A stretch of DNA of 64,000 bases from a virus (IMGVR_UViG_3300024346_000006), one strand, 5' to 3'; positions 7,865-61,092 are shown, counted from the first letter of the stretch. Numbers and translations are program-made. The notes: a model not told the origin generated them from the letters alone.

Positions 7865-7872
7865 GAATTCTC

Positions 7873-9117: not shown

Positions 9118-9145
9118 ATTCTCCGTTTTAAAAAAGTTATAATTA

Positions 9146-9159
9146 TATTTATATAAATA
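9146..9159. promoter_or_regulatory. Overlapping divergent T4-type late promoters
   Basis: tatttataTAAATA: TATAAATA on - (9146-9153) and on + (9152-9159) between divergent ORFs. Confidence 0.7.
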
Positions 9160-9220
9160 ATAGAAACGATATTCTCATATTAAAGGTTTAAAATGGCAAT
9201 TAGTTAAATAAGGTAAAAAA

Positions 9221-9661
9221 ATGGCATATGAATATAGTTGTAAAATTTTAAGAATTGTTGATGGAGATACAGTGGATGTAGACATTGACTTAGGCTTTGG
9301 AATTTGGATGCACAGAGAAAGAGTTCGAATCATGGGAATCGACACTCCAGAATCTAGAACAAGAGATAAAGTAGAAAAACAGTTTGGACTTGCTGCAAAA
9401 GCATACCTAAAAGAATTACTTCCGATTGGTTCTATTCAAACGATCAAAACACAAAAAGACAAAACAGGAAAGTTTGGAAGAATTCTTGGAGATTTTGAAA
9501 TCGAATATAAAGATTCTAAAAATAACTTTTCAAAAAGAACTATTACTTCACTGATGCTAGACAACCATCATGCAGTCCCATATAAAGGACAGAGTAAAGA
9601 AGAGTTGGTAGAGTTACATCTCATAAATAGAGAGAAACTAAGAGAAAAAGATCTTATCTAA
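9221..9661 (+). CDS. Staphylococcal nuclease-like (thermonuclease) protein
   Basis: RIVDGDTVDV, RVRIMGIDTPE, DKTGKFGRILG motifs. Confidence 0.9.
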   Translation: MAYEYSCKILRIVDGDTVDVDIDLGFGIWMHRERVRIMGIDTPESRTRDKVEKQFGLAAKAYLKELLPIGSIQTIKTQKDKTGKFGRILGDFEIEYKDSKNNFSKRTITSLMLDNHHAVPYKGQSKEELVELHLINREKLREKDLI

Positions 9662-9725
9662 TGCCTGCATCAAAAGCAAGAAAACTATCACAAATATTAC
9701 CCAAGGTAGTACTATTGCTGTTTAA

Positions 9726-10310
9726 TTAACCAGTAATCAAACCGTAAATTTCTTTCCAGTTTTGAACCCGAAGAGCGTTTCCGTTGTAACCGACATTGTG
9801 GTCATGGGCAATCAGAAGACTTTCCAATCCAACCCGAAGTCCGACATCTGCGTTCTCAGGTTTGTCTTCAACCCAGAAACAATCTGTACCAGCATACTCT
9901 AGAAGTGCTTCATCTTTGTCTGCACCAGTATCCAAATAAACATACCGTTCAAAGACACTATCTCCAAACAACTCCCGAAGGTTTTTAGTCCGTAGATGTT
10001 GTGCATACTGGTCGTTACTTAAACTAGTAATCGCATGGAAAATGTATCCATGTTCTTCGTGAAGTTTTTTCACATATTTGATTGCGTCCCGAAGAGGAGG
10101 CAACTTTCGAATCCAAGCACTTTCATTGAACATCCGACAAAGACGATTTGCTTCATTCTTAGTCAAACCGTACTTTAAATTCATTTTGTACTCGCCTTCA
10201 CAGACGGCTTCATAACCGTGACGAGTCATCCAACAGTCAAAGGCGTACTCCCAATCAAGGAGAACACCATCACAGTCAACTAATATTGTTTTTTCTTTTG
10301 TTGCTATCAT
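9726..10310 (-). CDS. HAD-family 5'(3')-deoxyribonucleotidase-like protein
   Basis: ILVDCDGVLLDW (DxD motif I), AITS, WVEDKPEN. Confidence 0.8.
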   Translation of the reverse strand: MIATKEKTILVDCDGVLLDWEYAFDCWMTRHGYEAVCEGEYKMNLKYGLTKNEANRLCRMFNESAWIRKLPPLRDAIKYVKKLHEEHGYIFHAITSLSNDQYAQHLRTKNLRELFGDSVFERYVYLDTGADKDEALLEYAGTDCFWVEDKPENADVGLRVGLESLLIAHDHNVGYNGNALRVQNWKEIYGLITG

Positions 10311-10341
10311 TCACACTCTTTCATAACTAACTTACATGTAT

Positions 10342-10398: not shown

Positions 10399-10474
10399 TG
10401 GTGGGCCCAGTAGGATTTGAACCTACGGTCAATGCGTTATGAGCGCACGGCTTTAACCACTAAGCTATAGGCCC
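10399..10474 (-). tRNA. tRNA with CAT anticodon, probably tRNA-Ile2 (lysidine type) rather than Met
   Basis: GGGCCTATAGCTTAGTGG...GTGCG-CTCATAA-CGCAT...GGTTCAAATCC...GGGCCCACCA; C4:G69 and C5:G68 (TilS determinants); encoded CCA. Confidence 0.9.
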
Positions 10475-10857: not shown

Positions 10858-10931
10858 TGGCATCGGCGCACAGAGTCGAACTGCGGCTTCCAGTTTTGGA
10901 GACTGGCGTGCTACCGTAACACTTCCCCGAT
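10858..10931 (-). tRNA. tRNA-Trp (CCA)
   Basis: CCAGT-CTCCAAA-ACTGG anticodon arm, GTTCGACTC T-loop, G73, encoded CCA; atypical A8/U14 and G6:G67. Confidence 0.85.
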
Positions 10932-14239: not shown

Positions 14240-14324
14240 TGGTGGGTGGGGTTGGATTCGAACCAACTCAACTTTCGTGTCAGATTTACAGTCTGATGCG
14301 ACTCGCCATCTTCGCCGCCCACCC
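14240..14324 (-). tRNA. tRNA-Tyr (GTA)
   Basis: GGGTGGG/CCCACCC acceptor, TCAGA-CTGTAAA-TCTGA anticodon arm, long variable arm, encoded CCA; C at position 8. Confidence 0.9.
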
Positions 14325-14330
14325 ATTGTT

Positions 14331-14418
14331 TGGTAGCCGCAGCCGGACTTGAACCGGCAAGGCCATTACAGCCGAGGGATTTTAAGTCCCTTGTGTATAC
14401 CAATTCCACCATGCGGCC
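14331..14418 (-). tRNA. tRNA-Leu (TAA)
   Basis: GGCCGCATGGTGGAATTGG...AGGGA-CTTAAAA-TCCCT...GGTTCAAGTCC...ACCA, long variable arm. Confidence 0.95.
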
Positions 14419-22121: not shown

Positions 22122-23023
22122 AAATCTCTGTGTAAAATTATCATTGTTCCGTGTTGTTGATCTTGCAAAACTATTCTCTTATTTGGGTTTGATTTTATGT
22201 ATTTTCTAATATCAACAGCATCATCTTTTTCGATGAAGTTCTCCCATCTACCATACTTCTTTTTACCTCTCATAAATTTGTTAAAAGAATCTGGTTTTAC
22301 CTTGAATATTTTCATTCCAGCAAATTGATATGGATCTTGAATAAATCCACCAATGTTGGAAGAATCACCTACTACATTTGCAATATCCTCAACAACAAAT
22401 TCTTCCGCTATTTCTGGATATGTTTGTTTCATGATCTTTGCAAGAGTTCTTCCATCTACTCCAGAATATGTTTTTGCAATCTGGTCAGAATAATAATTAA
22501 TACTGTGTCTTAGACCTCTTATACCACCTTCTTTTTTCTTTCTCTGCAAAACTTTTAACAAAGTATCAAGAGCATGGTCGTATACTTTCTTTTTACCAGT
22601 TTTTGATTTAATGACATTTATTACGTCATTAGACCACATTTCATTTAGAAGTTCAGACTCTTTGTTATGGTATTCTTCTTCTAAAATATTAATATAATCT
22701 AACAATGCAACTTCCAGTAGTTGCAGGTCGTCTTCTTTTAAATTTTCTTTATTCTCTTTAAGAAGTGCCATTGCAGCTGCATAAGTTGCAATTCTAGATC
22801 TACCGCCTGGAAACTTTTCTAAAATTCTTTTGAGGTTAAAAATAATCTTATGAAAAACTGTGAAAGATTTTTTTTCTGCGTCTGTTTTCAGTTCATTAGT
22901 TTTTTTTAACTTATTCCCTTTATCATCAATAACACCATTCTTAAACGCCTCAGTGTCGCTCCAAGGAGTTGTTAGAATTTTAATAAACTGATATGCAAGG
23001 TAGGCATTAAATACTGATGCCAT
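22118..23023 (-). CDS. Conserved T4-like hypothetical protein (301 aa)
   Basis: AYQFIKILTTPW...GVIDDKG...FHKIIFNLKR; internal LNE/EED sites. Confidence 0.7.
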   Translation of the reverse strand: MASVFNAYLAYQFIKILTTPWSDTEAFKNGVIDDKGNKLKKTNELKTDAEKKSFTVFHKIIFNLKRILEKFPGGRSRIATYAAAMALLKENKENLKEDDLQLLEVALLDYINILEEEYHNKESELLNEMWSNDVINVIKSKTGKKKVYDHALDTLLKVLQRKKKEGGIRGLRHSINYYSDQIAKTYSGVDGRTLAKIMKQTYPEIAEEFVVEDIANVVGDSSNIGGFIQDPYQFAGMKIFKVKPDSFNKFMRGKKKYGRWENFIEKDDAVDIRKYIKSNPNKRIVLQDQQHGTMIILHRDL

Positions 23024-23418
23024 TATATCTCTCCTAGAATTTGTACTATGTGGCTATCTCTTCCAATCATACTACTATCAATAGTCTTACCATTAACTCC
23101 TTCAATTTTATTTGGCAATCTATTTAAAAAGTCCAAAAAAGTTGCAAGAATATAATGTTGTTCTTCATCAATTTTCAAAAACAAAACTCTATTACAAGGC
23201 AATGTATTTAATACATTTAGTAATACTACTAAATGATTTATTATCAACCTTTCCTTCAAAACGCCTTTAGTATGATACTTATGGAAAAGTCTTTTGACAT
23301 ATTTTATTCTTTTCATGTCATCAAGAAACTCTTCCATATTATGACATTGAGGATTGTCATAATGTTTCATTTGATAATTGGCTACAGTTGTCTCCGTCAA
23401 ATTTTCAAAATTTTCCAT
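23023..23418 (-). CDS. Conserved T4-like hypothetical protein (131 aa)
   Basis: MKHYDNPQC...FLDDMKRIKYVKRLF...ERLIINH. Confidence 0.75.
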   Translation of the reverse strand: MENFENLTETTVANYQMKHYDNPQCHNMEEFLDDMKRIKYVKRLFHKYHTKGVLKERLIINHLVVLLNVLNTLPCNRVLFLKIDEEQHYILATFLDFLNRLPNKIEGVNGKTIDSSMIGRDSHIVQILGEI

Positions 23419-23814: not shown

Positions 23815-26800
23815 CTATTTTATATAACTTGCAATTTTTTTGGCTCTGGGTTTATTACCGTATTTTTCCATCGCCATTTGTTCTACTTCTTTTTTAACTT
23901 GGTTCGTATTATATTTAGGGTTCATTTCTCTAACGATTTCTTCCATTTCCTTTGCATCTTTTTTATCGGAATTTTCAATGATTATATTGATTTCGTTAAT
24001 CTCTTCCCTTTTCATAATTTTATATGCAAGATCAACTAACTTAGGCAATGGAAGTTTTTCCATCTTAGACTTATTAGAGTCGTTGACCTTATCGTATATT
24101 TGAACAACTGCAGATGCAGTAAACAAATCAACGATAGTCCCTTTAATTTTCTTTGCCTGTTTGTTATCAACGATATCTCTCATATCATCAATAATAGACT
24201 CTGCAAAAAGTTCGGCCTCTTCTTTTAGTCCAAGTTTTTTTGCAAGGTCTGCGGCATCTTTGCCCATTCCATAAGAGTTGTCTTTGATTCTCTGTTTAAA
24301 CCAATTTTTAATTACTGGACGAGCATCACCCTTTGGATTTTTCTTACCAGCATCCGCAAGATCGTCAAACAATTCATCGTCACCCAAAAGACTATAAAGT
24401 ACCTCTGTTGCATCATCTCCCTCTTTTCCGAGAGTAATTGGTTTAGACATCAATTTCTTTAATGCAGTCACTTCGGATGACTTGTCAGCAAATGCCCAAG
24501 TACCTTCTTGCAAATCTTCATTTGTTAATTGGATTGCTTTGGAAATTGCAGGATCATCAGAAAGTCCTTTTGCAATCTTTTCAATTGTTCCGATAATCTG
24601 TGTCATATTACCACCCTTCCAACGAGGGTCATTAAGAACACCAAATGCCATCTTGTACTGTTTCGTAGAATACTTTTTCTCACTAATAGTTTCTAATTCT
24701 TCGAAAATTCTTGCTGCCTGTCCAAGAGATATAGTGTTAATCGCACCCATATCATCTAAAGTTCTAAACTTAATACTTGTTCTGTCTAGTTGTAGTTCGA
24801 CATCATAAACTTTTCCGTTTTTACCACGAATACTATAGATAATTCCATTTTTCATTTTTGGGCTACTACCCTTAATTTTTGGAGCACGTTCTGTAATTTC
24901 TTCTTTTATATCTACAGGCGAAACTGCCATATCTCCGAAAGCCATTGTAACTCCTCCATCTCTTTTGTACAAATATCTTTTAGCACTAGTAGGACTATCT
25001 TTTCTTGCCAGAGTAATTTTTTCTACTGTGCCGTTACGAACCATGTTCTTAGACTTGACAATATACTCAATAAAATCTTTACCCTTCTCTAACGCAGAGT
25101 CATGTTTGATTTTAACAGTAGAACCCTTTTTTAGTTTATCAAAAACTCTAAGTAACTTAGGGTCGTTCATCTTCATACCTTCAACCATTTCTGCCTTTGA
25201 AGACGCCTCTTGGACTTCTTCCTGTTTATGTTTTGCTCTGATTGTTGCAAGAAGTTCTTCACCCATTCTCTTACCCTGAGATGCACTAACATTAGTTGGA
25301 AACTTATCCATATTTGATGGTAAAGGCCTTCCAATCATTTTTTCGGATTCTTTTTGGCTCTGTGGTTTTGTAAGAGTAACAATCTTTAGAGTATTCTTAT
25401 TCTTGATCGACATAGGCGGCAGTTCTGCAGAAGCTCTAGACTGTTTAACACCCTTTTCGCTAGATGCCATCGCAACAACTTTGTTACCGTTTGCAGTATC
25501 AATCAGTGCATGGGTGTTTTTCATTGCTTCATTCATTTCTGGGGTTTCGTGAGAATATCCTAGTTTTTTCATGCGTTCATGATCTTCTGGTTTTTCTGCT
25601 TTGTAACCTTTACCTGTCTTTGGATCATACATCATATGTGGTTTGAATTCGCCTTCACCAAGTTCTACTTCTTCTTTGTACATGTTCAGTTCATATCTCT
25701 TGTTGTCAAGATTTGCAACTTGAATTTGTACACCTCTAGATTTACCCTTCTTATCAGTACCCATCAAACGATACGAATTAGTTTTTCCATTAGATGGTTT
25801 TTTAGGGCCCATAGCAACTTTATCGTCAATTTCATCTGGGTCGATTTCAATTCCAAGTTTTTTCTTTGCATGGTCATATGCATGTTTCATTGCACTAGAA
25901 AAGTCTTTGTGATATAACTCGTAACCAGTCGCAGACTTTGCTTCATCGAACCGCATTGAGTGTTGCCCAGTACTTCGAACCTTCTCTGCATCCTTCATAG
26001 TCTTGTAAGGTTTACCTTGGTTTACAAATTTACCCTTAGTCATAACCTGTACTTGGAAACCTTTGTTTGGGAGTTTATCAACACCCAACTCTTTACGAAT
26101 TTTGTCTTGTGCTTTGTTACCCAAATCAATGATACGAACCGTACCTTCTTTAGATGCTTCATCAAGATCTTCTCCAACAAGTCTTTTTGCATACGCATTA
26201 AACGACTTTTGATCTTCTACAGAGTCTTTACCTTTACCTAGACCTTGGAAAATTTCTCTCCATGCCTTTCCGTCATTCGTCTTTTTGAAGTATGCCTGCA
26301 GTTTAGCAGCAGTTTTTTTGTCAACATTTATAATTTCTTTATCATCATAAGATAGACTCCCAATTGCATGTTTACCAGCTCTAACTTCCCAACGTTCTTC
26401 TAAAATTTTATTAAAAATTTCTTCGGTGGTGATATCTTCTTTTCTATATCCAAGTTTCTTCAATTTCTCTTTAAATGCAGATTGTCTACCATCAAATTGC
26501 TTTTCGTTAGAAAGGTCTTTTTTACCTTGATCTTTATACATCAATTTCTGGAGTTTTTCTTTAAAGGCCTTTGTTCTACCATCCAATTCTTGTTTTTTAA
26601 TTTCGATAGAATCTTTTACAGCGTTTTCTAAATTTCCCCTGTCGTTACACATATCACATCCTTTACCTTCACACTTAACGCAAGGCATCTTTCCTTCTTT
26701 TACCGCCTTCGCAACTTTGTCAGAAATAGTGACAGGATACTCCTTATCGCCGAATTTAAATTTTGTCTTGCCTGCTGATTTCGCAGCACTAGCAGCACCA

Positions 26801-26970
26801 ATAAAGTCAGCAACATCTTCTTCTCTTACTTTTTTTGCAACATCCTTACTGATAGTGACAGGATACTCTTTATCGCCAAGTTTAAATTTTTTCTCACCAG
26901 CGGCCTGCGCTGCAGACGCTGCACCAATAAAGGCGGCAATGTCTTCAATTGTCATATTCTTTTTAAACAT
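23815..26970 (-). CDS. Large modular putative internal head protein (1051 aa)
   Basis: K/E-rich; N-terminal 42-aa duplication; CxxC-CxxC; many xxE junctions (LDEA, FDEA, MNEA, VQEA, ITER, LQEG, LKEE). Confidence 0.65.
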   Translation of the reverse strand: MFKKNMTIEDIAAFIGAASAAQAAGEKKFKLGDKEYPVTISKDVAKKVREEDVADFIGAASAAKSAGKTKFKFGDKEYPVTISDKVAKAVKEGKMPCVKCEGKGCDMCNDRGNLENAVKDSIEIKKQELDGRTKAFKEKLQKLMYKDQGKKDLSNEKQFDGRQSAFKEKLKKLGYRKEDITTEEIFNKILEERWEVRAGKHAIGSLSYDDKEIINVDKKTAAKLQAYFKKTNDGKAWREIFQGLGKGKDSVEDQKSFNAYAKRLVGEDLDEASKEGTVRIIDLGNKAQDKIRKELGVDKLPNKGFQVQVMTKGKFVNQGKPYKTMKDAEKVRSTGQHSMRFDEAKSATGYELYHKDFSSAMKHAYDHAKKKLGIEIDPDEIDDKVAMGPKKPSNGKTNSYRLMGTDKKGKSRGVQIQVANLDNKRYELNMYKEEVELGEGEFKPHMMYDPKTGKGYKAEKPEDHERMKKLGYSHETPEMNEAMKNTHALIDTANGNKVVAMASSEKGVKQSRASAELPPMSIKNKNTLKIVTLTKPQSQKESEKMIGRPLPSNMDKFPTNVSASQGKRMGEELLATIRAKHKQEEVQEASSKAEMVEGMKMNDPKLLRVFDKLKKGSTVKIKHDSALEKGKDFIEYIVKSKNMVRNGTVEKITLARKDSPTSAKRYLYKRDGGVTMAFGDMAVSPVDIKEEITERAPKIKGSSPKMKNGIIYSIRGKNGKVYDVELQLDRTSIKFRTLDDMGAINTISLGQAARIFEELETISEKKYSTKQYKMAFGVLNDPRWKGGNMTQIIGTIEKIAKGLSDDPAISKAIQLTNEDLQEGTWAFADKSSEVTALKKLMSKPITLGKEGDDATEVLYSLLGDDELFDDLADAGKKNPKGDARPVIKNWFKQRIKDNSYGMGKDAADLAKKLGLKEEAELFAESIIDDMRDIVDNKQAKKIKGTIVDLFTASAVVQIYDKVNDSNKSKMEKLPLPKLVDLAYKIMKREEINEINIIIENSDKKDAKEMEEIVREMNPKYNTNQVKKEVEQMAMEKYGNKPRAKKIASYIK
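26700..26950 (-). repeat. 126-bp (42-aa) in-frame tandem duplication
   Basis: atagtgacaggatactc at 26726 and 26852; FIGAASAA...KFK.GDKEYPVTIS twice. Ends approximate. Confidence 0.9.
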
Positions 26971-26998
26971 GAAAAATCTCCGTTTTTTTACTATTTAT

Positions 26999-29125
26999 CT
27001 ATTTTTTAACCTTGGCCCACAAATCTGCATCACCAGTAGTTCTTGTTTTCCCACCTGTGATAAAAGAATTCACTCTCGCAAACGCCCATTGTTGTGGAGT
27101 AGTTCCCGGCCTGTGGCCACCCTTCCAGGCCGCCATACCTCTATCATATACCTTTTTTAGAATTTCATATGAAATACCAGATTTATCTGCCTTTTTAACT
27201 AATCCAGCAATCTTTGCTTCGTCTAATGTCTCTGTACTATCTTCGCCAAACATCTGCTTATATTTCTTAGTATATTGTGAAGGTTTCGTTTCTGCATCTG
27301 TATCTCCAGGCGCTGGTTTATAAGAAGAATCTTTTCTATCTGGTTTAGATGCCTGTTTTTTAAAATGAGCAGCTCTTTTATCTTTAGTAGACTTGGACAT
27401 CTCATCACCATCAGCATCTTTTGCATAATACTTTTTTGGTTGAGATCCCTCTTTGTCTTTGATATCTGGGTCTTGAGTTGTCTTTCTTTCGTAAATAAAT
27501 TGTGAAAAACTTTTTATATTCTCTTCTAAATCTTCCGCAGAATAACCAAGTTTCTTTTTTAGTATATTCATTGCAGTTGCCATCTTAACTTGCATCCACT
27601 CATCGCCGTATCTTTTCTTAAAATCATCATCTGGCAAATCTTTTGCAATCTTTTCTAAATCCTTTTCTCTTTCTGGATTCATCTTAAAATCTTCTAGTTT
27701 ATTTCCGTCCTTGTCGTACTTACCAGATTTCTTTTTCGCAATCGCAATCGCAGCCTGTTGAGCTCTAGATACACCTTCATCTTTTCCAGAAATCCTGTCA
27801 CGGAAATCTTTTTTAATTTCTCCATCTGTCACTTTCTCAACATCTTGAATAATCTTTGGATTTTTTAATAATTTGCGTAGGTTGTTTTTAACTTCCCCAG
27901 CACTACTTGCATCTATATAAAAAGTAGGTAATCCTTCAATATCTACTTGATAATTTGCTTCCTCAAGACTTTCATATTTTAATTCTTTACTTGATGTAGA
28001 AAAATTCTTTTTACGCATGATTGTTTTATGTACAACTTCAAACTCACCATTCTTGTAATTGATGACTACAGGCAGATTTAAATTAGTTGACATGTCTTTG
28101 AGAACTGCTTCGATATCAGGATTTGACTTAATCTGCGAACCTTTTTTCTTTTGAATCTTTTTGAAAAACTTTTGAAGTTCTGCAACTTTAATCTCTGGGT
28201 CATTTCTTTTATCATTCATTCTGTCAACAAAATGTCTTGTAAATGTAACATCAATATCATACTTTGCAAGCATTCTATCTGCAAACTTTTCTAAATCATC
28301 AATTTGTTTTTGAGACACTTCCTCATTATTGTATATTTTTTTATATACCGTATCATAATCATCATCAATACCAATTTTAAAATCTAACTCTTTATAAACA
28401 GATTCCATCAATATTTCATCTTCGATATCTTCTACAATCTCTACAAATTCTGTTTCAATAAAACGTGAAAAGTCTGCATTGGTTGCTTCAAGAAACTCTA
28501 ACAATTCTTCACTTATATTCATTGACTTTCTGAGAGTATCAAATAATTTTTTTCCATTAGACTTTTCAAAGTCAGAAGGCAAACCAGATTTAAATCCGTT
28601 GAGTATTTTACCAGTTTTCGGGTCTTTCTCATCTTCATATCTATTTGCAGCTGCTGCTGCTCTCATTTTAGATGCTGACATACCAGCAACACCCTCTGCA
28701 TCAGGATCTCTTTCCCCCGCAGAAACTACTTCAATACCATCTTTAAAATCATAGAAACCATGGCTTCCTTCTTTACCATTATATTTGTTAAGTGTAGTTT
28801 TAAATTCTGTAACTCTATCTCCACCGACAACCATAATACATCTCTTATAACCCATGTCATATAACATAGGAGCAATCATAAATGCAGTCTTTGCATTTCT
28901 ATTAGAGATGATATTGCGAGAATACTTTGGAAACATCTTTTTCATAAAACCAACTTTAGTTTTATGATCTAAAGGATCTTTTTTGTCATTTTGTGAATGA
29001 CTAGGAAATACCATAAAGTCGGCGCCTTCTTTTTTAGCAACCGATGCAAGTTTTTTTATTAATTTTTCGTGTCCTGTGGTTGGGGGATTAAACCTACCAA
29101 ATGTAAAAATTACTGTATCTTTCAT
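26999..29125 (-). CDS. Cytidyltransferase-like (HIGH-fold) nucleotidyltransferase fused to further modules (708 aa)
   Basis: FTFGRFNPPTTGHEKL, VVGGDR, MSASKMR; internal FTRHFVDR domain; C-terminal QWAFARVNSF module. Confidence 0.85.
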   Translation of the reverse strand: MKDTVIFTFGRFNPPTTGHEKLIKKLASVAKKEGADFMVFPSHSQNDKKDPLDHKTKVGFMKKMFPKYSRNIISNRNAKTAFMIAPMLYDMGYKRCIMVVGGDRVTEFKTTLNKYNGKEGSHGFYDFKDGIEVVSAGERDPDAEGVAGMSASKMRAAAAANRYEDEKDPKTGKILNGFKSGLPSDFEKSNGKKLFDTLRKSMNISEELLEFLEATNADFSRFIETEFVEIVEDIEDEILMESVYKELDFKIGIDDDYDTVYKKIYNNEEVSQKQIDDLEKFADRMLAKYDIDVTFTRHFVDRMNDKRNDPEIKVAELQKFFKKIQKKKGSQIKSNPDIEAVLKDMSTNLNLPVVINYKNGEFEVVHKTIMRKKNFSTSSKELKYESLEEANYQVDIEGLPTFYIDASSAGEVKNNLRKLLKNPKIIQDVEKVTDGEIKKDFRDRISGKDEGVSRAQQAAIAIAKKKSGKYDKDGNKLEDFKMNPEREKDLEKIAKDLPDDDFKKRYGDEWMQVKMATAMNILKKKLGYSAEDLEENIKSFSQFIYERKTTQDPDIKDKEGSQPKKYYAKDADGDEMSKSTKDKRAAHFKKQASKPDRKDSSYKPAPGDTDAETKPSQYTKKYKQMFGEDSTETLDEAKIAGLVKKADKSGISYEILKKVYDRGMAAWKGGHRPGTTPQQWAFARVNSFITGGKTRTTGDADLWAKVKK

Positions 29126-29796: not shown

Positions 29797-30339
29797 TTAC
29801 CAGAAAAAATTACCACCACCACTTAATCCAAGTTGTTTTGCATACTTTGGAAGTCTACATGCCCAATAGCCTGGTTTTGTCTTATCGTTTTTCTGATCGC
29901 AATTATGTCTTGCAACAAAACTCTTTCTTGCCTCTGGGTCATTAATTTTTGCAGTCAATCCTGTTGTATCCCCAAATGAAATCTTAATTACATTTCCTTT
30001 ATCATTTTTAACATATACATAATACTTTTTCTTACCACCCCTCTTTGGGGAATTCAATTCTACATCTTCTTCCATCAAGGGGCAGTCTAAAGGAACATAT
30101 ACGGCATCAAATTCTTGTTTCTCAAACATCGCCCACTCACCAATATCTGTTTGTAACATTTCAATGTCGTAAAGGTCAAACTCGAGCTTACCTTCTTCAT
30201 ATAATTTTCTCGCCACTCTAAAGGTTTTGTAAAAATTATTTGAACCTAGACGAAAGACATTATCAATTAGTGGTATTTCATTCTGTCTATGATACAACAC
30301 CATTTCTTCTATATTTTGAAACTGTTTATAAGTTTTCAT
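29797..30339 (-). CDS. Putative internal head protein (180 aa; start revised to 30339)
   Basis: Starts MKTYKQFQNIEE (ATGA overlap with upstream stop); C-terminal KYYVYVKN...FGD...ARKSFVARHNC...GYWAC module. Confidence 0.7.
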   Translation of the reverse strand: MKTYKQFQNIEEMVLYHRQNEIPLIDNVFRLGSNNFYKTFRVARKLYEEGKLEFDLYDIEMLQTDIGEWAMFEKQEFDAVYVPLDCPLMEEDVELNSPKRGGKKKYYVYVKNDKGNVIKISFGDTTGLTAKINDPEARKSFVARHNCDQKNDKTKPGYWACRLPKYAKQLGLSGGGNFFW

Positions 30340-30839
30340 CTCAATAACTTCTCCAATTCTCTCATAGTCTTCGCTGGATTGATATGACGAATACCAATAC
30401 CACCTTTCGCTTCCCATTCTTTTATATTCTTAGGATAATCATCAATTAGAATATTTGGTTTATCATTTGTTGTAGCAAATTTCTGTTTATCTTCTCGTTG
30501 GACTAAATGTATTTTTCCATTCAATCTCAAATTTTTTGAAATCCAAGCTCTTTTACCTTTTTGCGAATTCGAATCTCTTTTGGAATATGCAGATAAAATG
30601 TTTGCATTGTACTTGTTTAACATTTTCCACATCTTTTCCGAGCCTGACATCCATGGTAGGGTGTGCCAAAAATCTTTCTTGGATTTAATATCTTCCCATC
30701 TTTCTTCTTTGTCGGTTGATGCAAAGTCTTTATTAAATGCGGTTGTATAACCGCCTGTGAAATTACAAAGAACTTCGTCCATATCACAATAAATTTCTGG
30801 CATTTCTTTTTCAAAAATATATTGATTGAAAGTTTTCAT
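30336..30839 (-). CDS. HAD-family phosphatase (NT5C-like) with CTS-like N-terminus
   Basis: MKTFNQYIFE then IYCDMDEVL, ILSA, ILIDDYPKNI...GGIGIRH. Confidence 0.8.
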   Translation of the reverse strand: MKTFNQYIFEKEMPEIYCDMDEVLCNFTGGYTTAFNKDFASTDKEERWEDIKSKKDFWHTLPWMSGSEKMWKMLNKYNANILSAYSKRDSNSQKGKRAWISKNLRLNGKIHLVQREDKQKFATTNDKPNILIDDYPKNIKEWEAKGGIGIRHINPAKTMRELEKLLR

Positions 30840-31129
30840 TTCATTAAACCTTTTATTACTTTTAGTGCCATCTTACCATCTGGGTGATGCGGATTAATAC
30901 TGACTTCATCCCCATTAACAAAATCAGAAATACTAGCTGACTTGCCAAGAGCAGTAATTGCTTTGTGTAGTGGATCTTTTGGATCGTATCTTCGTTCAAA
31001 ATTGGGTTTTCCTCTTAGTTCGACCCAGCTCTTTTCTTTAGTATCCCACATCTTAAGTACATCTTGATCTTTACCACGAACCAATTTGAGCTTAATACCT
31101 TCAGAAAGATATTGAGTAAAACCTAACAT
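30836..31129 (-). CDS. Hypothetical protein with CTS-like N-terminus (97 aa)
   Basis: MLGFTQYLSE-GIK...; overlaps both neighbours. Confidence 0.65.
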   Translation of the reverse strand: MLGFTQYLSEGIKLKLVRGKDQDVLKMWDTKEKSWVELRGKPNFERRYDPKDPLHKAITALGKSASISDFVNGDEVSINPHHPDGKMALKVIKGLMK

Positions 31130-32073
31130 CAGTCATCGTCCATTTCGTCCATGATACTGTAATCATAAACAGCGTCGATGTAATCCTTTGCCTTCGTCAC
31201 TTTAGAAACTACCCACGCCTCCATTTCATATTCATTATTTTGTGGATTATCGACTTCTTCCATAAGTGCCTCTGCAAGTTCTGTGGACTTATTAGAAAGA
31301 ATGATGAGTTGTCTCAACATCATCTCCAAACTATCCTGTGCAAACTCTGCGTCTTCTATAAATAGTTCTTCTTTAATTCCTCTTGCGGCCTTTTCTGCAG
31401 AAATCCACTTTTTAGCGACAGTTTTAGTTGGTGATTTCTTTGTCCACGCTCCAATAGTTCTATATGCCCTCATAACATCTCTTTCAAAGTCTGCGCCGTC
31501 AGAGTTATCAATTACAAACATTTTTTCCTTAAATGCAGACTGAAATTTACCAATGTTTCCTTGAACACCTTTCCACATAGATTCAACTTCATTGTCTGGA
31601 AGACTTCTCGCTCTTAATCTATTTCGGTTTAATGCGGTGTCTAAATCGGTATTGACAAAAATCATTGCGGTTTCGTAACCCATCGCCTCTAACTTGTCTT
31701 TTTGTTTTTTAATTTTATCATAATCTTTTCCAGTACCATCGACAACAAGTCCAAGTCTACCCCTCATATATCCCGCCTGTTGCGCCGCAGTAAGTGCTTT
31801 TGCTTTACCTCTTACTTGTTGTCCAAGGTCAGAGAAAATATCATCTGGATTTCCTTTGTCCAGTCCCGACTTATCCAACGCCCTTTCAAATGCAGGGTCG
31901 GAGTTTACAACTCTCAATCCAAAAGAAGTAAGTGCAGTTCTACCTACAATAAAAGATTTACCAGAACCTGGCCCACCGGCGAGGAACACCGCCTTAAAGA
32001 TGCCTGGGTCATTGATACCTTCTTCTAAAGTTTCTTCATTTCTAAGATTTTCGATTATATTTCTTATATCCAT
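31129..32073 (-). CDS. P-loop kinase (zeta-toxin/polynucleotide-kinase-like; start revised to 32073)
   Basis: AVFLAGGPGSGKS Walker A, VNSD, LVVDGT, ALNRNRLRAR lid; extra C-terminal module after IKEE. Confidence 0.8.
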   Translation of the reverse strand: MDIRNIIENLRNEETLEEGINDPGIFKAVFLAGGPGSGKSFIVGRTALTSFGLRVVNSDPAFERALDKSGLDKGNPDDIFSDLGQQVRGKAKALTAAQQAGYMRGRLGLVVDGTGKDYDKIKKQKDKLEAMGYETAMIFVNTDLDTALNRNRLRARSLPDNEVESMWKGVQGNIGKFQSAFKEKMFVIDNSDGADFERDVMRAYRTIGAWTKKSPTKTVAKKWISAEKAARGIKEELFIEDAEFAQDSLEMMLRQLIILSNKSTELAEALMEEVDNPQNNEYEMEAWVVSKVTKAKDYIDAVYDYSIMDEMDDD

Positions 32074-32074
32074 T

Positions 32075-33328
32075 TTACTTGTCCCATGCCTTTGCTGCAG
32101 TAAAGTTATTATAACTAAATTCCATTCGATCAACAATTTTCACGGCATTACCCTTTGTATCAATTGCAACATAACCTTCTGGATTTGTCACTTCATAACC
32201 GTTTTCTGTACGAACAAAAATCTGCGTTAACTGTTTAACACTATTTAGTTTATTTATAATAAGAGATTTAGCACCAATTAATTCTTCCATAAAATCAACA
32301 ATTGAATATGCAACACTGTCTAATTTAATTAATTGTTTTACTGCATCATCTCTAATTCTTTCTTTATCTTTTCTTGCACCTTCTGTTTTTAACTTTGCAA
32401 TAACTTTTTCGTCAAAAAACTTTTTAACATACATCGAATAGTCTAAATTTTTCATGTTCTTTGTAGAAATATTCTGTCCTTCACGAATATATGTGTTGAG
32501 ATAGGTTTTGAAACTTGCACCAGCAAGTCCTTTAATAAAAATTTTGTTTTGGAGTTGCATAAATGTTTTAAAATCGTTTGATCTGATTTTCTTAAATTTT
32601 CTACCAACTTGAGACATTTGCCCATCGAGTGTTTTTAGTTCGGACGAAGTAAATTTTGCAGAACCAGAAACATCTTTATATGTTGCATCATCCATCCACA
32701 CAGATGATGTTTTCTTTAATCCAGATATATTCACACCAAAAGAGGCCGTCATCGATGGTAAATCTTTTCCAGAATATGTTGTATGCCAAACAACACCAAT
32801 CTTTGCAGCGTTGATTGCCTTTCCTAAATCAGAATCTTTCTGAACTGCATACATCAATGTGTTTTGTTGGAATGTTAGATATGTCTCGCCATCAAGTGTT
32901 TTTTCTGACACATCATCAGTAAACATTAAGTCTCCTTGAATAACACCCTTAATTCCCAATTTAGAAAATTCTCGATATGCAACAGTAAATTTTGATTTTA
33001 ATGCGGGACTTAGTTTTATATCTGCATCGATCTCTGCAGTACTTTTATATAATAGTGGAGTCTCATTAAATACAGATTTTTTTGCGATAAAGAATTTTCC
33101 ATCACTTGGATCTATTCCAGCGAATATAGCAGGAGCACCGTCCCACTTAACTGTCATGTTTACTTTAGAATCTGAATTTCCTGCCAACATGTCTCTTAAA
33201 GATAAAAGAAATTGTACAGCGGCACGGCCACCATCGATTCCAAAGTTGAGAATTTCATCTTCAAGGTGTTCTAAGTGTAGATTTTTTCCACCTTTTGATT
33301 CAGTAAGATATTTTTTAAATGATTGCAT
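32075..33328 (-). CDS. Putative ATP-dependent ligase-superfamily nucleotidyltransferase with CTS-like N-terminus (417 aa)
   Basis: MQSFKKYLTE; TVKWDG (motif I, K61), IQGDL (III), PEGYVA (IV), AVKIVDR (V). Confidence 0.6.
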   Translation of the reverse strand: MQSFKKYLTESKGGKNLHLEHLEDEILNFGIDGGRAAVQFLLSLRDMLAGNSDSKVNMTVKWDGAPAIFAGIDPSDGKFFIAKKSVFNETPLLYKSTAEIDADIKLSPALKSKFTVAYREFSKLGIKGVIQGDLMFTDDVSEKTLDGETYLTFQQNTLMYAVQKDSDLGKAINAAKIGVVWHTTYSGKDLPSMTASFGVNISGLKKTSSVWMDDATYKDVSGSAKFTSSELKTLDGQMSQVGRKFKKIRSNDFKTFMQLQNKIFIKGLAGASFKTYLNTYIREGQNISTKNMKNLDYSMYVKKFFDEKVIAKLKTEGARKDKERIRDDAVKQLIKLDSVAYSIVDFMEELIGAKSLIINKLNSVKQLTQIFVRTENGYEVTNPEGYVAIDTKGNAVKIVDRMEFSYNNFTAAKAWDK

Positions 33329-34689
33329 TAGTAAAGTTTCCCGAATGGCCCAAATATTTTCCCCTTCTTTTGGGCAAGATATGTTAAAGTTGTTAGTAAA
33401 TCATCTCTTTTTTCATCATTTGTGATGGAGACAATTTCACACACCAAATGGAGTTGCATCAATTTACTATGAGCATAATCTGGTCTTGATGTGTTAAATG
33501 CCGATACCATATTTTTTTGAAACTGGTTTTCGGTTATTCCTGTATATTGTTTTACTTTGTTGAATTTATATAAGAATTTATTATAATCGTTCATGAATTC
33601 TTCTTCAGATGTAGGATAGTTTGTATTATCATTATCCCAATTAAGGCCTTCGTCTGTAAAAATTTTTCTGGCCATGTCTAAAGGAACTTTACCAAGTCTT
33701 GCGGAAGTTGCGCCCAAGTCTGTTCCTTCAATTTTTAAATTATTAAAACCAGCACTATTTTGTCTGATTTGAAATTTAATTCTTCCCTTTTTACCTGATA
33801 CAACAATTTTGGTATCTGAGTTAACAAACTCTCCATTTCCCTTTGTCTTAAGATTGATATCGATGTCTTGTAATTTAAAGTTATATTCTTTATCATCAAA
33901 GATGTCCATGTTTTCTAGATTTACAAGTTCCCATCTTGCAGTTGTACCTGACATCTTTTTTAGGGAAATACCAACTATTCTTCTTTCATGGAACATATCT
34001 CTTAGAATGGCGTTAAATTCTTCTAGGGAAGTTACATCATCTAATACTTTTTCTTTTAAGGTGTTTTTTACTTTATTAAGGTCAGATACCAACCATATGT
34101 CTGCAGGGTTCCAAGTATCTTTTTTTGCAATACCATATTTTTGTTTACAAATTCCAGTAATGTAATCCATAAATCCACGGTCTCTGGAATAGTGTTTATA
34201 ACTACTGTTTCCGACTTTATTATATGTTGTTAATTGTTGCTGAAAGAATGTATTTTCCCATTCTTCATTCATAGCTGGATAAATCTTTTTTAGATCATCA
34301 CGGTATAGTTTCATAAACTTGCCTTGATCTGTGTATCCATTATTTTCAATACCCATTTTTATCGCAAAAAGGGAGGCGAGTTCTTGCATCTGGGTAGTTT
34401 TCCCATCAGAACCGCCTCCCATTCCACTAAAGGGTGCTTTATCTATTTGTGTCCACTTGTATCCATTAAAAATTGGAAGGTATTTACCACTTTTTGTCAA
34501 AGAACTCATAACTCTAGGTTGCGACTTGTCCTTCACTGCCCCAAGAAACTTCTTTACTTCTGGAGTCAATTGAACCATAGCCTTTGATCTATCCGCAAAC
34601 TTTAGTTCTTTTTTACTATTAATCACATCTGCAACCATATTCAAGTATGGTTTTTCAAACTTTGTTTCTTTTGCTCCAAGGTTTGCCAA
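33328..34689 (-). CDS. PD-(D/E)XK-like nuclease (453 aa)
   Basis: TQMQE...KDTWNPADIWLV...IVGISLKK pattern. Confidence 0.55.
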   Translation of the reverse strand: MANLGAKETKFEKPYLNMVADVINSKKELKFADRSKAMVQLTPEVKKFLGAVKDKSQPRVMSSLTKSGKYLPIFNGYKWTQIDKAPFSGMGGGSDGKTTQMQELASLFAIKMGIENNGYTDQGKFMKLYRDDLKKIYPAMNEEWENTFFQQQLTTYNKVGNSSYKHYSRDRGFMDYITGICKQKYGIAKKDTWNPADIWLVSDLNKVKNTLKEKVLDDVTSLEEFNAILRDMFHERRIVGISLKKMSGTTARWELVNLENMDIFDDKEYNFKLQDIDINLKTKGNGEFVNSDTKIVVSGKKGRIKFQIRQNSAGFNNLKIEGTDLGATSARLGKVPLDMARKIFTDEGLNWDNDNTNYPTSEEEFMNDYNKFLYKFNKVKQYTGITENQFQKNMVSAFNTSRPDYAHSKLMQLHLVCEIVSITNDEKRDDLLTTLTYLAQKKGKIFGPFGKLY

Positions 34690-34720: not shown

Positions 34721-34728
34721 TATTTATA
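34721..34728 (-). promoter_or_regulatory. T4-type late promoter TATAAATA
   Basis: Exact consensus 32 nt upstream of ORF 34689, heading the 13.6-kb coupled operon. Confidence 0.75.
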
Positions 34729-57577: not shown

Positions 57578-58957
57578 TTATACAGAATTGATATTGTCTA
57601 CACGGAAGATTCTGTAGTAGGTATTTGAACGAGCTGTAAGAGCACCGTTACCAACTGTTGTACCTTCTGCATATGGGTTAGCAACCAATCCATAACGAGT
57701 CTTGAACCCGATTTTTGGTTGGAAACTGTTCTCACCAACTGCACGAACCATCTGCAATGGAACGTATGGGCAATAGAAGAATCCAGCATCATATGGAGAT
57801 GTACCTCTGAATCCAACCATTACGAAGTCGGTATTGTTGGCAGACGAGAAGTATGGGTCAATGTATACTTTGAAACGTCCGTTAAGTATTCCAGCAAATG
57901 TCGAACCAGTGTCATCAACATTCAAACCTGTTGACATTTGTGGGTTGTACTCAAGAAGACCTGCCATTGCAAGTGCGGAAGCAACGTCTGAAGAACAAAC
58001 GATTACGTTACCCTTACCACGGCGAGTTTCTTTAGCAATTGTGTTTGCTTCTCTCTCAATGTGGAACATAAGTCCTTTGAACTTCTCAACACTCCAACGT
58101 CCGTCAGCGTCTGTTGCAAGGTCATATACACCTGTGTTAGTTACTTGAGTTTGAGCACCAAGTTTTGCGATACCGTACATTGTGCGAAGAACTTCACGGT
58201 TAATTTCTGCAGTAATTTCTGTAGAAAGAATTGTTGAAAGTTCTGCTTCTGCGTCAAGTCCATGAACCGCTTTCAAGTCTTGTGAAAGTTCAGTTGTGTA
58301 CTCAGCTTTCAATGCTCTTGTTTTTGCGGTTACTGATACTCTCTCAATTGAGAATGCCATTTGGTTGAAGTGACCGTCTGCAGTCATTGTAGAACCGTTA
58401 CCTAACAATTCACCCTGTGCAGTTGAGCCAGGAATACCAGTTGTTACTGTTGAACCAGTTTCATCCAATGAACCAGTAGCAATAACAGCACCAGCGAATG
58501 GATCTGTACCTGAGTGATTTGGTCCTGCAACATCACCAGAAAACTCTGTGTTTGCTTCATTGAATGATGCTTCTGCACCAGCCTGATTGGTATAACGTGA
58601 ACGCATCGCAAAGATAAGTCCAGTTGGTCCTGTCATTGGTTGTACACCACAAAGGTCATATGCCATTAGGTTTGGCACGGTTCTACGAAGCATAGAAATG
58701 ATGACTGGGTCTGCATACTGGATATTACCAGCAGAAGAACCTGTTGGTGCAACACTTGTTGGTGATTCGTTAAGTTGATCCAAAGAAGAACGTCCTAAGG
58801 CGTTTTCTTTGATTGTGGCTTGTTCTGTATTCTCAAGAAGAATAGCAGTTACTGCCTTTCTGTATGGGTCTGTGATCTCGGCATGTTCACCATGGTCAAG
58901 AACGGGTGCCCACTTTTCTTTTAATTGTTGAACAAAGTTCTCGTTATAGTCGTGCAT
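57578..58957 (-). CDS. gp23: Major capsid protein (gp23)
   Basis: EKWAPVL, CGVQPMTGPTGLIFAMR, RALKAEYT.EL.QDL.AVHGLDAE, GFKTRYG. Confidence 0.99.
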   Translation of the reverse strand: MHDYNENFVQQLKEKWAPVLDHGEHAEITDPYRKAVTAILLENTEQATIKENALGRSSLDQLNESPTSVAPTGSSAGNIQYADPVIISMLRRTVPNLMAYDLCGVQPMTGPTGLIFAMRSRYTNQAGAEASFNEANTEFSGDVAGPNHSGTDPFAGAVIATGSLDETGSTVTTGIPGSTAQGELLGNGSTMTADGHFNQMAFSIERVSVTAKTRALKAEYTTELSQDLKAVHGLDAEAELSTILSTEITAEINREVLRTMYGIAKLGAQTQVTNTGVYDLATDADGRWSVEKFKGLMFHIEREANTIAKETRRGKGNVIVCSSDVASALAMAGLLEYNPQMSTGLNVDDTGSTFAGILNGRFKVYIDPYFSSANNTDFVMVGFRGTSPYDAGFFYCPYVPLQMVRAVGENSFQPKIGFKTRYGLVANPYAEGTTVGNGALTARSNTYYRIFRVDNINSV

Positions 58958-59009: not shown

Positions 59010-60131
59010 TTAATCTTTAGGTTTATTTAGTGCTTTCGCATAAATATCCATAACCGATTGAAATTTATTTTCCTCTTTAACCACTGGCGAATCCTCTACA
59101 GAAGTTTCTAATGCACTCTCAGCGAGAATACTTTCGCTTTCCACACTTGTTCCAGATGGAAAATAATTATCTCTGATCAATGTAATCTTATTTCTCATAT
59201 CGCCGGCGTCCACGAAATCGACACTTTCAGTAAGTGTTCTTACTTTTTCAGATTGTGAAACTGTAAGTCCTTCTGTCACTTCCTTTAGAATGATTTCGGT
59301 CTCTAGAGATTCAATTTTCTGTACCAATTCAATATTCCTTTGAATTGACTCATCCAATTTTGTCTCTTTTTCGTCAAGAGAAGATAATGCATCCCCATAA
59401 AGGTCAATTTTATCTTCTGGTACATCAACATAGTTTTCCTCAAACAGAGTTTTGAGTCCTGACATGAAGTTTTCCATAACTTCTAATTTCAGTTTGTTTT
59501 CAACGGCGAGTTTATTTTCTTCAACCCACTCTTTAGCGACATAAGTAAGATACTCATTCACTTTTTCAGAAATATCTTCACGGATATGAGAAACTTCTTC
59601 ATGAAGTTCTTTTTCATAATCTTCATACATTTTTTCCAACTGTTCGTTTACTTTAGCAACTACAGCTGCTTCGAAAATGGTTTTAACTTGTGACTGGAAT
59701 TCTTCAGTTAGTTCTTGTCCAGCAAGCATAGCATCAACATCTTCTTTGACATCGATATCTTCTTTAGCAACCTTATAAGAAGCATTCATTTTTTTCTTAG
59801 GAGATTCTTTGACTTCTTCTTCGTCATCTTCCTCTTCATCACCATGCATATCTTCTTTCTTAGATGACTCGGATTTTTCATCTTCTTCGTCATCTTCGTC
59901 ATCTGCCATTTCTTTCTTAGAAGATTTGGACTCTTTCTTTACTGATTCTTCAGCTTCGTCCTCTTCTTCTTCGTCTTCATGGGCATCTTCCTTTTTAGAA
60001 GCTTTTGCCTCAACGACAGTTTCTTGATCTTCTTGAAGTTCGTTAATTACTTCTTCTACCTGAGAATCAATCTCTTCGGTTTCTGAAGCAACAACTTCTT
60101 CAATCATATCTTCGTTTTTTAAATCTTCCAT
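59010..60131 (-). CDS. gp22: Prohead core scaffold (gp22)
   Basis: Acidic N-terminus, VKTIFEAAV, YLTYVAKEW..EN, FMSGLKTLFEENY. Confidence 0.93.
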   Translation of the reverse strand: MEDLKNEDMIEEVVASETEEIDSQVEEVINELQEDQETVVEAKASKKEDAHEDEEEEDEAEESVKKESKSSKKEMADDEDDEEDEKSESSKKEDMHGDEEEDDEEEVKESPKKKMNASYKVAKEDIDVKEDVDAMLAGQELTEEFQSQVKTIFEAAVVAKVNEQLEKMYEDYEKELHEEVSHIREDISEKVNEYLTYVAKEWVEENKLAVENKLKLEVMENFMSGLKTLFEENYVDVPEDKIDLYGDALSSLDEKETKLDESIQRNIELVQKIESLETEIILKEVTEGLTVSQSEKVRTLTESVDFVDAGDMRNKITLIRDNYFPSGTSVESESILAESALETSVEDSPVVKEENKFQSVMDIYAKALNKPKD

Positions 60132-60174: not shown

Positions 60175-60810
60175 TTAAAGTTTTGACACAAAATTTTTGA
60201 AAACTCTCAGTTTTGTTTCTTCTAATTGTTGCCTTTTGGCCTTTTTAAGAGAGTCTTGGTATTCTGCAATTTGAGCTTCTTTAATAATACCGTTGTCCCA
60301 AACCCACTCTCTACCTTCCATAATACCTTCTACAAATGCATTGGGTGCGGAAGGGTCTGCAACAATGTCAGCAGCAGTTGCAAGATAAAAGTCATCTTGA
60401 ACAACATTTGCACCACCTGACTGTTTTACACTACCCATACCTCTAGAAGAAACACCTAAAGATGCACCTTCTTTGATGAGGTTGCTAACGATAGCACCAT
60501 AAGGAGTATCAGTCATAATTTTTGCTTTACCAACAAAGTTATCACCATCTCTCTTAAGTTCTTTAATCATATGGGAAACTCTTTCCAGATTGATAGTTGG
60601 GCCTTCTGGGTGTCCAAGTTCTCCAAATGCTCTATTTTTTTGAATGTAGTTTTCATTATATCTTTGAACTTCTCTTTCGAGAACTTCTGTAGGATACACT
60701 CTACCATTTCTATTTTTGACATTTGATTGTAAGAAAATGCCTTCAATGAAAAGGTCTTTTCCTTTGGATTCTACCAGAATGTCTTCAACTACTTCCGTAA
60801 TTAGTTTCAT
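60175..60810 (-). CDS. gp21: Prohead protease (gp21)
   Basis: MKLITE, NRNGRVYP, GELGHP, GVSSRGMGS, DIVADPSAP. Confidence 0.97.
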   Translation of the reverse strand: MKLITEVVEDILVESKGKDLFIEGIFLQSNVKNRNGRVYPTEVLEREVQRYNENYIQKNRAFGELGHPEGPTINLERVSHMIKELKRDGDNFVGKAKIMTDTPYGAIVSNLIKEGASLGVSSRGMGSVKQSGGANVVQDDFYLATAADIVADPSAPNAFVEGIMEGREWVWDNGIIKEAQIAEYQDSLKKAKRQQLEETKLRVFKNFVSKL

Positions 60811-61073
60811 ATTCCTGTCCTTCTTTGAAGTGATCTTCTTCTACGGAGATTTGCAATATTAACCTTGCCTTTTCTTTTCCTTGCGGAACGAGTGTTTCTA
60901 ATACTCATTTTTCGCAGAGCGCCTGGATTAATCTTGACCTCTCTCTTGTTAATTACTTTATAACCGGCCTTATCAGACACATATTTAATTTTTCTTTTAC
61001 CTTTTCTGATGACTATTTTTCTTTTGACTGCTTCGTCAAGGTCATCTTCCAAGAATTCTAAAAAAGAATGCAT
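60807..61073 (-). CDS. gp68: Prohead core protein (gp68-like)
   Basis: Position between gp67 and gp21; acidic N-terminus ending LDE, Arg/Lys-rich remainder. Confidence 0.7.
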   Translation of the reverse strand: MHSFLEFLEDDLDEAVKRKIVIRKGKRKIKYVSDKAGYKVINKREVKINPGALRKMSIRNTRSARKRKGKVNIANLRRRRSLQRRTGI

Positions 61074-61092
61074 CTTTTAAACCCTTTAATAT

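Follow-up and report, generated by a model that had tools for sequence, protein, structure and literature searches.

Capsid targeting in T4 and, probably, in a marine relative

The capsid targeting sequence (CTS) that heads internal proteins of bacteriophage T4 reportedly goes back to Mullaney and Black in 1996, and to our knowledge it has mostly been seen as a curiosity of T-even phages and as an engineering handle. The T4 head also contains an enzyme, the ADP-ribosyltransferase Alt, which is processed by the protease gp21 and ejected. Here we analyze a stretch of viral DNA of 64 kb (IMGVR_UViG_3300024346_000006, hereafter the window), in which several genes of a late cluster begin with a decapeptide resembling the T4 CTS, and we argue that these N-terminal tags are very probably the T4-type CTS of the phage lineage concerned.

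Both ipII and ipIII of T4 begin with MKTYQEFIAE, which the T4 sequences confirm. Packaging requires no more of IPIII than its first ten residues, mutagenesis has assigned residues 4 and 7 to targeting and residues 8 and 10 to processing, and gp21 cleaves after L/I-x-E (PMC9026906). Removal of the CTS from IPII and IPIII is the work of this prohead protease (reviewed in PMC9026906, PMC3012670), and the scaffolding core protein gp22 co-purifies with the T4 internal proteins (PMC9026906). In phiKZ, 201phi2-1 and SPN3US, a protease related to gp21 cleaves many proteins of the head interior on the C-terminal side of Glu (PMC9026906); these giant phages differ in having S/A-x-E sites, long propeptides, no IPIII-type decapeptide and a far larger cargo mass.

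The window is part of the genome of an uncultured marine T4-like myophage. Among its gene products are gp23, gp22, gp21 and the gp20 portal, together with a gp43-type polymerase, UvsX, a gp41-type helicase and a gp55-like late sigma factor. By DNA comparison, the isolates closest to it are Pelagibacter phage HTVC008M and Methylophilales phage Melnitz, the latter with about 71% identity in parts of the region; both phages have been placed in Kyanoviridae. Every gene treated here lies on the minus strand of the window, and the genes of the tagged cluster overlap by 1-4 nucleotides (nt).

N-terminal tags of the late cluster

The genes on which the comparison turns are the following (lengths in amino acids, aa; a slash in a peptide stands at the predicted junction).

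32075..33328, minus strand: 417-aa DUF6267 protein with the tag MQSFKKYLTE (tag codons 33299-33328), assigned by Pfam DUF6267
31129..32073, minus strand: 314-aa P-loop kinase (Zeta_toxin/AAA_33; polynucleotide-kinase-like in PHROG) with the degenerate N-terminus MDIRNIIENLRNEETLEE/G
30836..31129, minus strand: 97-aa protein with the tag MLGFTQYLSE, recognized by a motif match at the N-terminus
30336..30839, minus strand: 167-aa NT5C-type 5'(3')-deoxyribonucleotidase (HAD fold) with the tag MKTFNQYIFE, assigned by Pfam NT5C
29797..30339, minus strand: 180-aa protein (phrog_7595 C-terminal domain) with the 12-residue tag variant MKTYKQFQNIEE, start revised
60807..61073, minus strand: 88-aa protein in the gp68 position with the tag-like start MHSFLEFLEDDLDE/A (MHSFLEFLE), preceded by AATAAATA at 61090-61097
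60175..60810, minus strand: gp21 prohead serine protease, the presumed tag-removing enzyme (Pfam Peptidase_S77, E-value 4.8e-37)
59010..60131, minus strand: gp22 scaffolding core protein (Pfam T4_CASP, 1e-60)
58766..58774, minus strand: L-N-E, residues 62-64 of gp23, predicted maturation cleavage site from the alignment with T4 gp23

An earlier note on this DNA had quoted four N-termini of this kind, at 33328, 31129, 30839 and 30339, and all four are present at those positions. Its revision of the 180-aa start to 30339 is likewise supported: the ATG there overlaps the stop codon of the preceding gene in an ATGA, four orthologues (L009, L022, L045 and L024) start with MK[TS][YF][KR]QFQN[IL][EK]E, and conservation does not extend to the upstream ATG. 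Position 4 is F or Y and position 7 is Y or F in four genes (417, 97, 167 and 180 aa), and L/I8 and E10 are exact in three of them. The L/I-x-E is shifted by two residues in the 180-aa protein and by four in the 88-aa protein.

The likeness to the T4 CTS thus consists of ten N-terminal residues with an aromatic residue at positions 4 and 7, I/L8 and Glu10, and it extends to the setting: a gp21 of family S77, gp22, an L-x-E site in gp23, a late promoter, basic predicted mature proteins and carriers that are unrelated to each other. On the other hand, the window phage belongs to the Melnitz/pelagimyophage branch (Kyanoviridae) with a gp21 that is just 35% identical to that of T4, positions 2-3, 5-6 and 9 are free in its lineage, and variants of 9 and of 12-14 residues occur. 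The T4 internal proteins are three small non-enzymatic proteins, whereas the predicted cargo of the window comprises enzymes of 18-45 kDa and multi-module proteins with internal tag copies. Alt offers a precedent for an enzyme in a T4-type head that gp21 trims and that is delivered along with the DNA; it differs in having its own propeptides at both ends and no decapeptide of the IPII/IPIII type, and the enzyme families are unrelated.

Frequency of the motif

A strict regular expression (^M..[FYW]..[FYWL][ILVMF].E), applied to all start codons in six frames of the 64 kb, matched the 417-, 97- and 167-aa genes, one spurious 36-aa open reading frame (ORF) and nothing else. Anywhere in the proteins, the core motif occurs 18 times in 20,672 aa, compared with 10.2 +/- 3.2 in shuffles; at the N-terminus (position 4, about 80 proteins) it is seen three times, with about 0.04 occurrences expected. 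A position-specific scoring matrix trained on the tags of other contigs only ranked the 417-, 97-, 167- and 88-aa proteins first to fourth among 80 N-termini, with the 180-aa protein fifth, and the score of the fourth was reached by only 1e-4 of internal peptide windows. In such a profile scan of N-termini, which the earlier note had proposed, only the late cluster and the 88-aa gene adjacent to gp21 score.

Across 81 related sequences, the tag stands at 106 of 2603 start-proximal ATGs and at 3 of 5581 internal ATGs. In a control over the 169 kb of T4, the DNA pattern of the tag matches only ipII, ipIII and gene 61.1, and the reversed pattern matches nothing. The product of this last gene (NC_000866, 18966-19130), a 54-aa hypothetical protein, starts with MKTFKEFIKE and, judging from this start, could be an unrecognized CTS-bearing protein of T4.

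Conservation and portability of the tag

An unselected list of N-termini was drawn up for 77 IMG/VR orthologues (57-96% identity) of the 417-aa gene, and about 60 of them read M-x-x-F-x-x-(F/Y/L/I/H/M)-(L/I)-x-E, followed by the start of the conserved domain, while the others are shortened versions. Entropy and codons were counted over 45 distinct tag-matching orthologue sequences, in which F4, L/I8 and E10 do not vary and only F, Y, L, I, H or M occur at position 7. Entropy is at most 0.43 bits at positions 4, 8 and 10 and amounts to 2.4-3.3 bits at positions 2, 3, 5, 6 and 9. Given that Leu8 is encoded by six different codons and that entropy is low at positions 4, 8 and 10 only, selection acts at the level of the peptide rather than of the DNA or RNA.

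At least 14 unrelated families are headed by the tag, including DUF6267, the 97-aa family, NT5C, the cytidylyltransferase, a HAD phosphatase and families of 131, 131-145 and 360-504 aa. The tag is variably present or absent among the orthologues of DUF6267, the cytidylyltransferase, the kinase and NT5C. In cyanophage S-PM2 and in a Vibrio jumbo phage, the DUF6267 orthologue is untagged and begins directly at the ..HLEHLED.. core, and the cytidylyltransferase is N-terminally tagged in Melnitz, many IMG/VR contigs and the cyanophages S-CREM2 and S-SCSM1 and untagged in the window. Genome scans of Melnitz and of a complete 204-kb relative found the tag confined to the late cluster. The DUF6267 gene of Melnitz itself (MZ577097, L004; 13272-14528) has an annotated start, MLTLINFSKYITE, that probably lies three codons too far upstream; the TTG at 13281 gives M-INFSKYITE, an exact tag, and the same TTG is used by three IMG/VR orthologues.

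The kinase of the window has an N-terminus that keeps an L-E-E/G junction, and in its orthologues a clear tag precedes L-x-E/G, as in Melnitz (MKTFAELQE/GVYDP) and L030 (MKSFHELQE/G). A 335-aa ORF with a TTG start (31129-32136) would overlap the upstream gene by 62 nt; from the sequence, the kinase most likely starts at the ATG at 32073, one base past the upstream stop, with which the orthologues concur.

Protease, scaffold and predicted cleavage sites

The presence of gp21 in the window, claimed in the earlier note, is confirmed: the alignment with T4 gp21 shows that the GELGHP and GVSSRG motifs are retained, and identity with the S-CREM2 and S-SCSM1 proteases amounts to 58% and 55%, respectively. 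The matching L-N-E site in gp23 (Pfam Gp23, 8e-140) was also correctly called, given that L-N-E64/S aligns exactly with L-T-E65/A of T4 gp23. By analogy with T4, gp22 is likely to be the docking platform of the tags. All of the tagged proteins would be basic after predicted removal of the tag, with isoelectric points (pI) of 8.3-12; the mature form is predicted at 45 kDa and pI 9.2 for the DUF6267 protein and at 9.9 kDa and pI 9.7 for the 97-aa protein.

The N-terminus of gp21 itself, MKLI[TC]E.., is kept across relatives and contains an L/I-x-E site at residues 4-6. This recalls the LIE-9 site of T4 gp21, for which a role in autocleavage or targeting has been considered.

In the 88-aa protein encoded just before gp21, a cut at L-D-E14 would leave 74 residues of 8.7 kDa with a pI of 12.0. 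The gene just upstream of gp21 is tagged across relatives with 63-98% gp21 identity, with starts such as MKSFSEYLDE.., MQSFGEYLDE.., MKSFIEYTLLE.., MRTFKEFKNSIAE.. and MKTFKQLFE... The earlier note had described this protein as gp68-like and as starting with MHSFLEFLE. The start is found at 61073, and the likeness to gp68 is one of position only: BLASTP finds no similarity to T4 gp68 (E-value 3.9), Pfam gives no match, T4 gp68 starts with MLLIPETHE.., and what the two genes have in common is their place between the portal/gp67-like genes and gp21. The label is therefore positional, and by its sequence the protein looks like a basic T4 internal protein at the gp68 position.

Tagged proteins in virions of related cyanophages

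Published virion proteomes of two T4-like cyanophages were compared, and one further gene of the window is needed for the comparison with them.

26999..29125, minus strand: 708-aa protein of several modules, with a cytidylyltransferase/NMNAT-like domain at the N-terminus and DUF5824 at the C-terminus, no N-terminal tag

In CsCl-purified virions of S-CREM2, 52 of 221 ORFs were detected by mass spectrometry (MS) (PMC10665884, Table 3). Scanning the whole S-CREM2 genome (OR473000) with the tag pattern yielded three matches at annotated starts, namely ORF6, an S-adenosylmethionine (SAM) hydrolase (MKDFDSFLEE), ORF136, a hypothetical protein (MQTFSMFFSE), and ORF154, a cytidylyltransferase (MKNFSSFLTE). 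All three belong to the MS-detected set, the probability of which by chance is about 0.012. Two more MS-positive proteins also carry tags, the APH-like kinase ORF14 (GTG start, ..KRFDAFLTE) and ORF13 (MKDLHSFLTE). ORF154 is homologous to the N-terminal domain of the 708-aa protein (6e-27), and TATAAATA stands just upstream of ORF6 and ORF154.

In S-SCSM1 (MK867354) the NMNAT encoded by ORF91 starts with MKSFLQFLKE, has AATAAATA upstream and shares 49% identity with the cytidylyltransferase domain of the window; it was detected in virions (PMC9602691). When S-CREM2 and S-SCSM1 are pooled, four of the five tag-bearing genes encode MS-detected virion proteins. The SAM hydrolase, APH-like kinase and cytidylyltransferase of S-CREM2 and the NMNAT of S-SCSM1 resemble the window genes in their N-terminal tag and late-promoter context and differ in that the window set (DUF6267, NT5C and the 97- and 180-aa proteins) is a distinct one and its cytidylyltransferase is N-terminally untagged. 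The two proteome papers make no mention of a targeting tag and leave open whether such proteins are cargo or contaminants (PMC10665884, PMC9602691), and in the literature that we searched neither a link between a CTS and cyanophages or pelagimyophages nor any mention of DUF6267 was found.

Another MS-positive protein of S-CREM2, ORF12 (7704-10313), annotated as a 'CRISPR-Cas9 nuclease', has a tag-like ..LRFASFMAE/A at residues 17-27 (L178), and this position suggests a longer propeptide or a mis-set start.

Late promoters

The T4-type late promoter sequence TATAAATA has 16 matches in the window, with 6.5 expected. On the minus strand, 12 of the 15 copies of NATAAATA sit 17-40 nt upstream of a gene start, and the genes concerned include those of gp19, gp22, gp23, the 88-aa protein, the 1051-aa protein and the 453-aa protein heading the tagged operon. 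The late promoters at 34721-34728, 26992-26999 and 61090-61097 precede the genes of the 453-, 1051- and 88-aa proteins, respectively. This arrangement would fit late expression of the tagged operon from a T4-type promoter.

34721..34728, minus strand: T4-type late promoter TATAAATA, lying 32 nt ahead of the gene that opens the cluster
33328..34689, minus strand: 453-aa protein (phrog_1462), untagged, heading the late operon, with promoter, Shine-Dalgarno sequence and TTG start

Enzyme identity of the predicted cargo

The assignment of the 167-aa protein as an NT5C nucleotidase is solid at the sequence level, with PF06941 at 8.2e-9 (36 bits, cut-off 24.8), phrog_2643 at 7.3e-34 and D-M-D-E-V, the HAD motif I DxDx[TV], directly after the tag. 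The 417-aa protein matches Pfam DUF6267 at full length over residues 16-413, above the gathering score (E-value 5.5e-98, 329 bits), so that the tag lies outside the domain. Its K61-W-D63-G64 (KxDG, ligase motif I) is invariant in 14 orthologues of 57-75% identity. A wide search with VIA-align, using an AF2 model (pLDDT 73.5), placed eight ligases in the top 50 (Z 5.3-6.5), a coherent though modest signal; the best ligase match was REL1 (1xdn; Z 6.5, rmsd 3.1, 129 residues aligned), and seven others, T4 Rnl2 and Trl1 among these, matched at Z 5.3-5.6. A profile of the 14 orthologues found nothing below an E-value of 0.1 among PDB sequences, and Foldseek found no match for the model in the PDB. 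A ligase-like nucleotidyltransferase would be a plausible, only moderately supported identity for DUF6267.

Weighing the explanations

We consider it very probable that the tags are the T4-type CTS of this lineage and that they mark basic proteins, enzymes included, which are most likely docked on the core, cut by gp21 and left in the head. For the window phage, we infer that the tagged proteins dock on the core, are cleaved by gp21, stay in the head and are injected. The tagged proteins would be made late from T4-type late promoters, and a short N-terminal helix, aromatic or hydrophobic at positions 4 and 7, would dock them on the gp22-based core during prohead assembly. The protease gp21 would then cut after the Glu of L/I-x-E at positions 8-10, and the basic mature proteins would remain in the head with the DNA, probably to be ejected into the next host. 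The proposed cargo consists of the DUF6267 protein, the NT5C nucleotidase, the 97- and 180-aa proteins and the basic 74-aa protein beside gp21, and the kinase and the 708-aa multi-module protein would probably be cargo too. That the tagged genes encode internal head cargo, including enzymes, had been proposed in the earlier note, and it gains support from the sequence tests and from the tagged proteins in S-CREM2 and S-SCSM1 virions, with the enzyme identity being solid for NT5C and only moderately supported for a ligase-like activity of DUF6267.

Several points weigh against this reading. L/I-x-E is a short motif, and an enzyme of 45 kDa would have to leave through the tail. The kinase of the window has a degenerate N-terminus, and its cytidylyltransferase protein (708 aa) has no N-terminal tag, only an internal copy. 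In HTVC008M, the cluster genes have degenerate tags and the strict pattern gives one unrelated match genome-wide; a clean tag is therefore not universal in the group. ORF30 of S-SCSM1 (106 aa) is tagged and absent from the list of virion proteins; it is the sole other genuine tagged gene of that phage, lying between two virion proteins and adjoining the terminase. Both proteome papers warn that abundant non-structural proteins might co-purify (PMC10665884, PMC9602691).

The tags could also be propeptides of prohead-core or scaffold-like parts, that is, gp21-processed filler that is degraded or retained and not delivered in active form. T4 gp22, gp67 and gp68 are core proteins that are cut to fragments and mostly lost (PMC9026906), the 88-aa gene lies inside the head gene block, and all predicted mature forms are basic, as DNA-binding filler would be. 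We nevertheless regard this as unlikely, given that enzymes such as NT5C, and the SAM hydrolase, kinase and NMNAT of cyanophage virions, have no obvious role in assembly, that a tag varying among orthologues fits accessory cargo rather than essential core parts, and that T4 IPI and Alt are precedents for ejected cargo of the CTS type. A still smaller probability attaches to a docking peptide or degron that has nothing to do with the capsid and addresses a cytoplasmic enzyme hub, a host protease or a chaperone. A short amphipathic N-terminal helix could bind many partners, and ligase-like, kinase and phosphatase enzymes might plausibly form one complex, but several things would then go unexplained: the identity with the T4 CTS at the positions defined by mutagenesis, the invariant Glu with L/I two residues earlier, the tag on the basic gp21-adjacent protein of many relatives, and the late promoters together with MS detection in purified cyanophage virions.

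The remaining candidate is an effect without any peptide function, by chance, by codon bias or through a DNA-level cassette junction left by recombination. An AT-rich genome does make Lys, Phe, Tyr, Ile and Glu codons common, and the region is clearly shuffled between relatives. Yet the enrichment is specific to the N-terminus, the T4 control shows that the pattern is specific, the conserved positions are written in several synonymous codons with free positions between them, and the 30-nt tags of the window share just 15-22 of 30 bases with dissimilar flanks. A cassette or composition effect was rejected on the N-terminal enrichment, the codon variety and the low DNA identity of the tags, and we attach next to no probability to this explanation.

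Implications of a probable address tag in marine phages

What is already known is the CTS mechanism, from T4; what is new is that the tag is tied to published cyanophage virion proteomes and that enzyme cargo is predicted in the Melnitz/pelagimyophage branch. The four-position code of T4 persists in marine phages that are ecologically dominant and only very distantly related to it, and there it is found on enzymes and not on small filler. The tag would account in a simple way for the recurrence of NMNAT/cytidylyltransferase, kinase and SAM hydrolase in cyanophage virion proteomes, and given that these proteins are tagged they are probably true cargo and not contaminants. It would serve as a sequence-only predictor of packaged, possibly injected, proteins in uncultured phages, and it flags candidate enzymes for early counter-defence or host takeover in phages of SAR11, OM43 and picocyanobacteria.

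It can be speculated, as a tentative idea that we would not yet favour, that in marine T4-like phages (Kyanoviridae, Melnitz/pelagimyophage branch) an ancient T4-compatible address tag pre-loads a changeable enzyme kit, which is injected and acts before phage gene expression. If this were true, the kit here would consist of the ligase-like DUF6267 protein, a P-loop kinase resembling polynucleotide kinase, a HAD phosphatase/nucleotidase and an NMNAT-like nucleotidyltransferase, and it might, for example, repair cleaved RNA or restore nucleotide and NAD pools against abortive-infection defences. One could then read directly from sequence which proteins uncultured ocean phages inject.

Neighbouring genes and further observations

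The internal copy of the tag in the 708-aa protein, IKSFSQFIYE, which the earlier note had pointed out, is indeed present at residues 537-546 (nt 27488-27517). Given that the C-terminal module of this protein is a free-standing gene starting with MKDYKEIFL.. in L023 and L029, the internal copy marks a module junction. Domain shuffling among these polyproteins is also seen in Melnitz-like contigs, where the cytidylyltransferase protein carries at its end, as a fusion, the C-terminal domain of the 180-aa protein (loci compared: L069, L072, L054, L076, L061 and L051). Downstream follows another long gene.

23815..26970, minus strand: 1051-aa late protein without a family match, preceded by GATAAATA at 26992-26999

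The 1051-aa protein is part of the same late cargo-like region. The 453-aa protein at the head of the operon was considered as an orthologue of the tagged 362-aa gene found at the same position in Melnitz, which was rejected as the two show no similarity. The model of the 97-aa protein shows a compact alpha/beta domain, which no known fold matches above Z 4.4, and ESM Atlas look-ups of the 97- and 180-aa proteins returned unnamed viral clusters only.

A 131-aa DUF7207 protein (23023-23418) starts with MENFENLTE, which resembles the 9-residue variant M-x-x-F-x-x-L-x-E of the kinase orthologues. This start may be due to chance, because the homologues in Melnitz and S-CREM2 lack the 9-residue tag and the S-CREM2 homologue, ORF159, was not detected by MS.

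Two long listed ORFs were dismissed as spurious because they overlap the minus-strand tRNA genes Tyr-GTA (14240-14324) and Leu-TAA (14331-14418); Met-CAT (10399-10474) and Trp-CCA (10858-10931) are further tRNA genes on this strand of the window.

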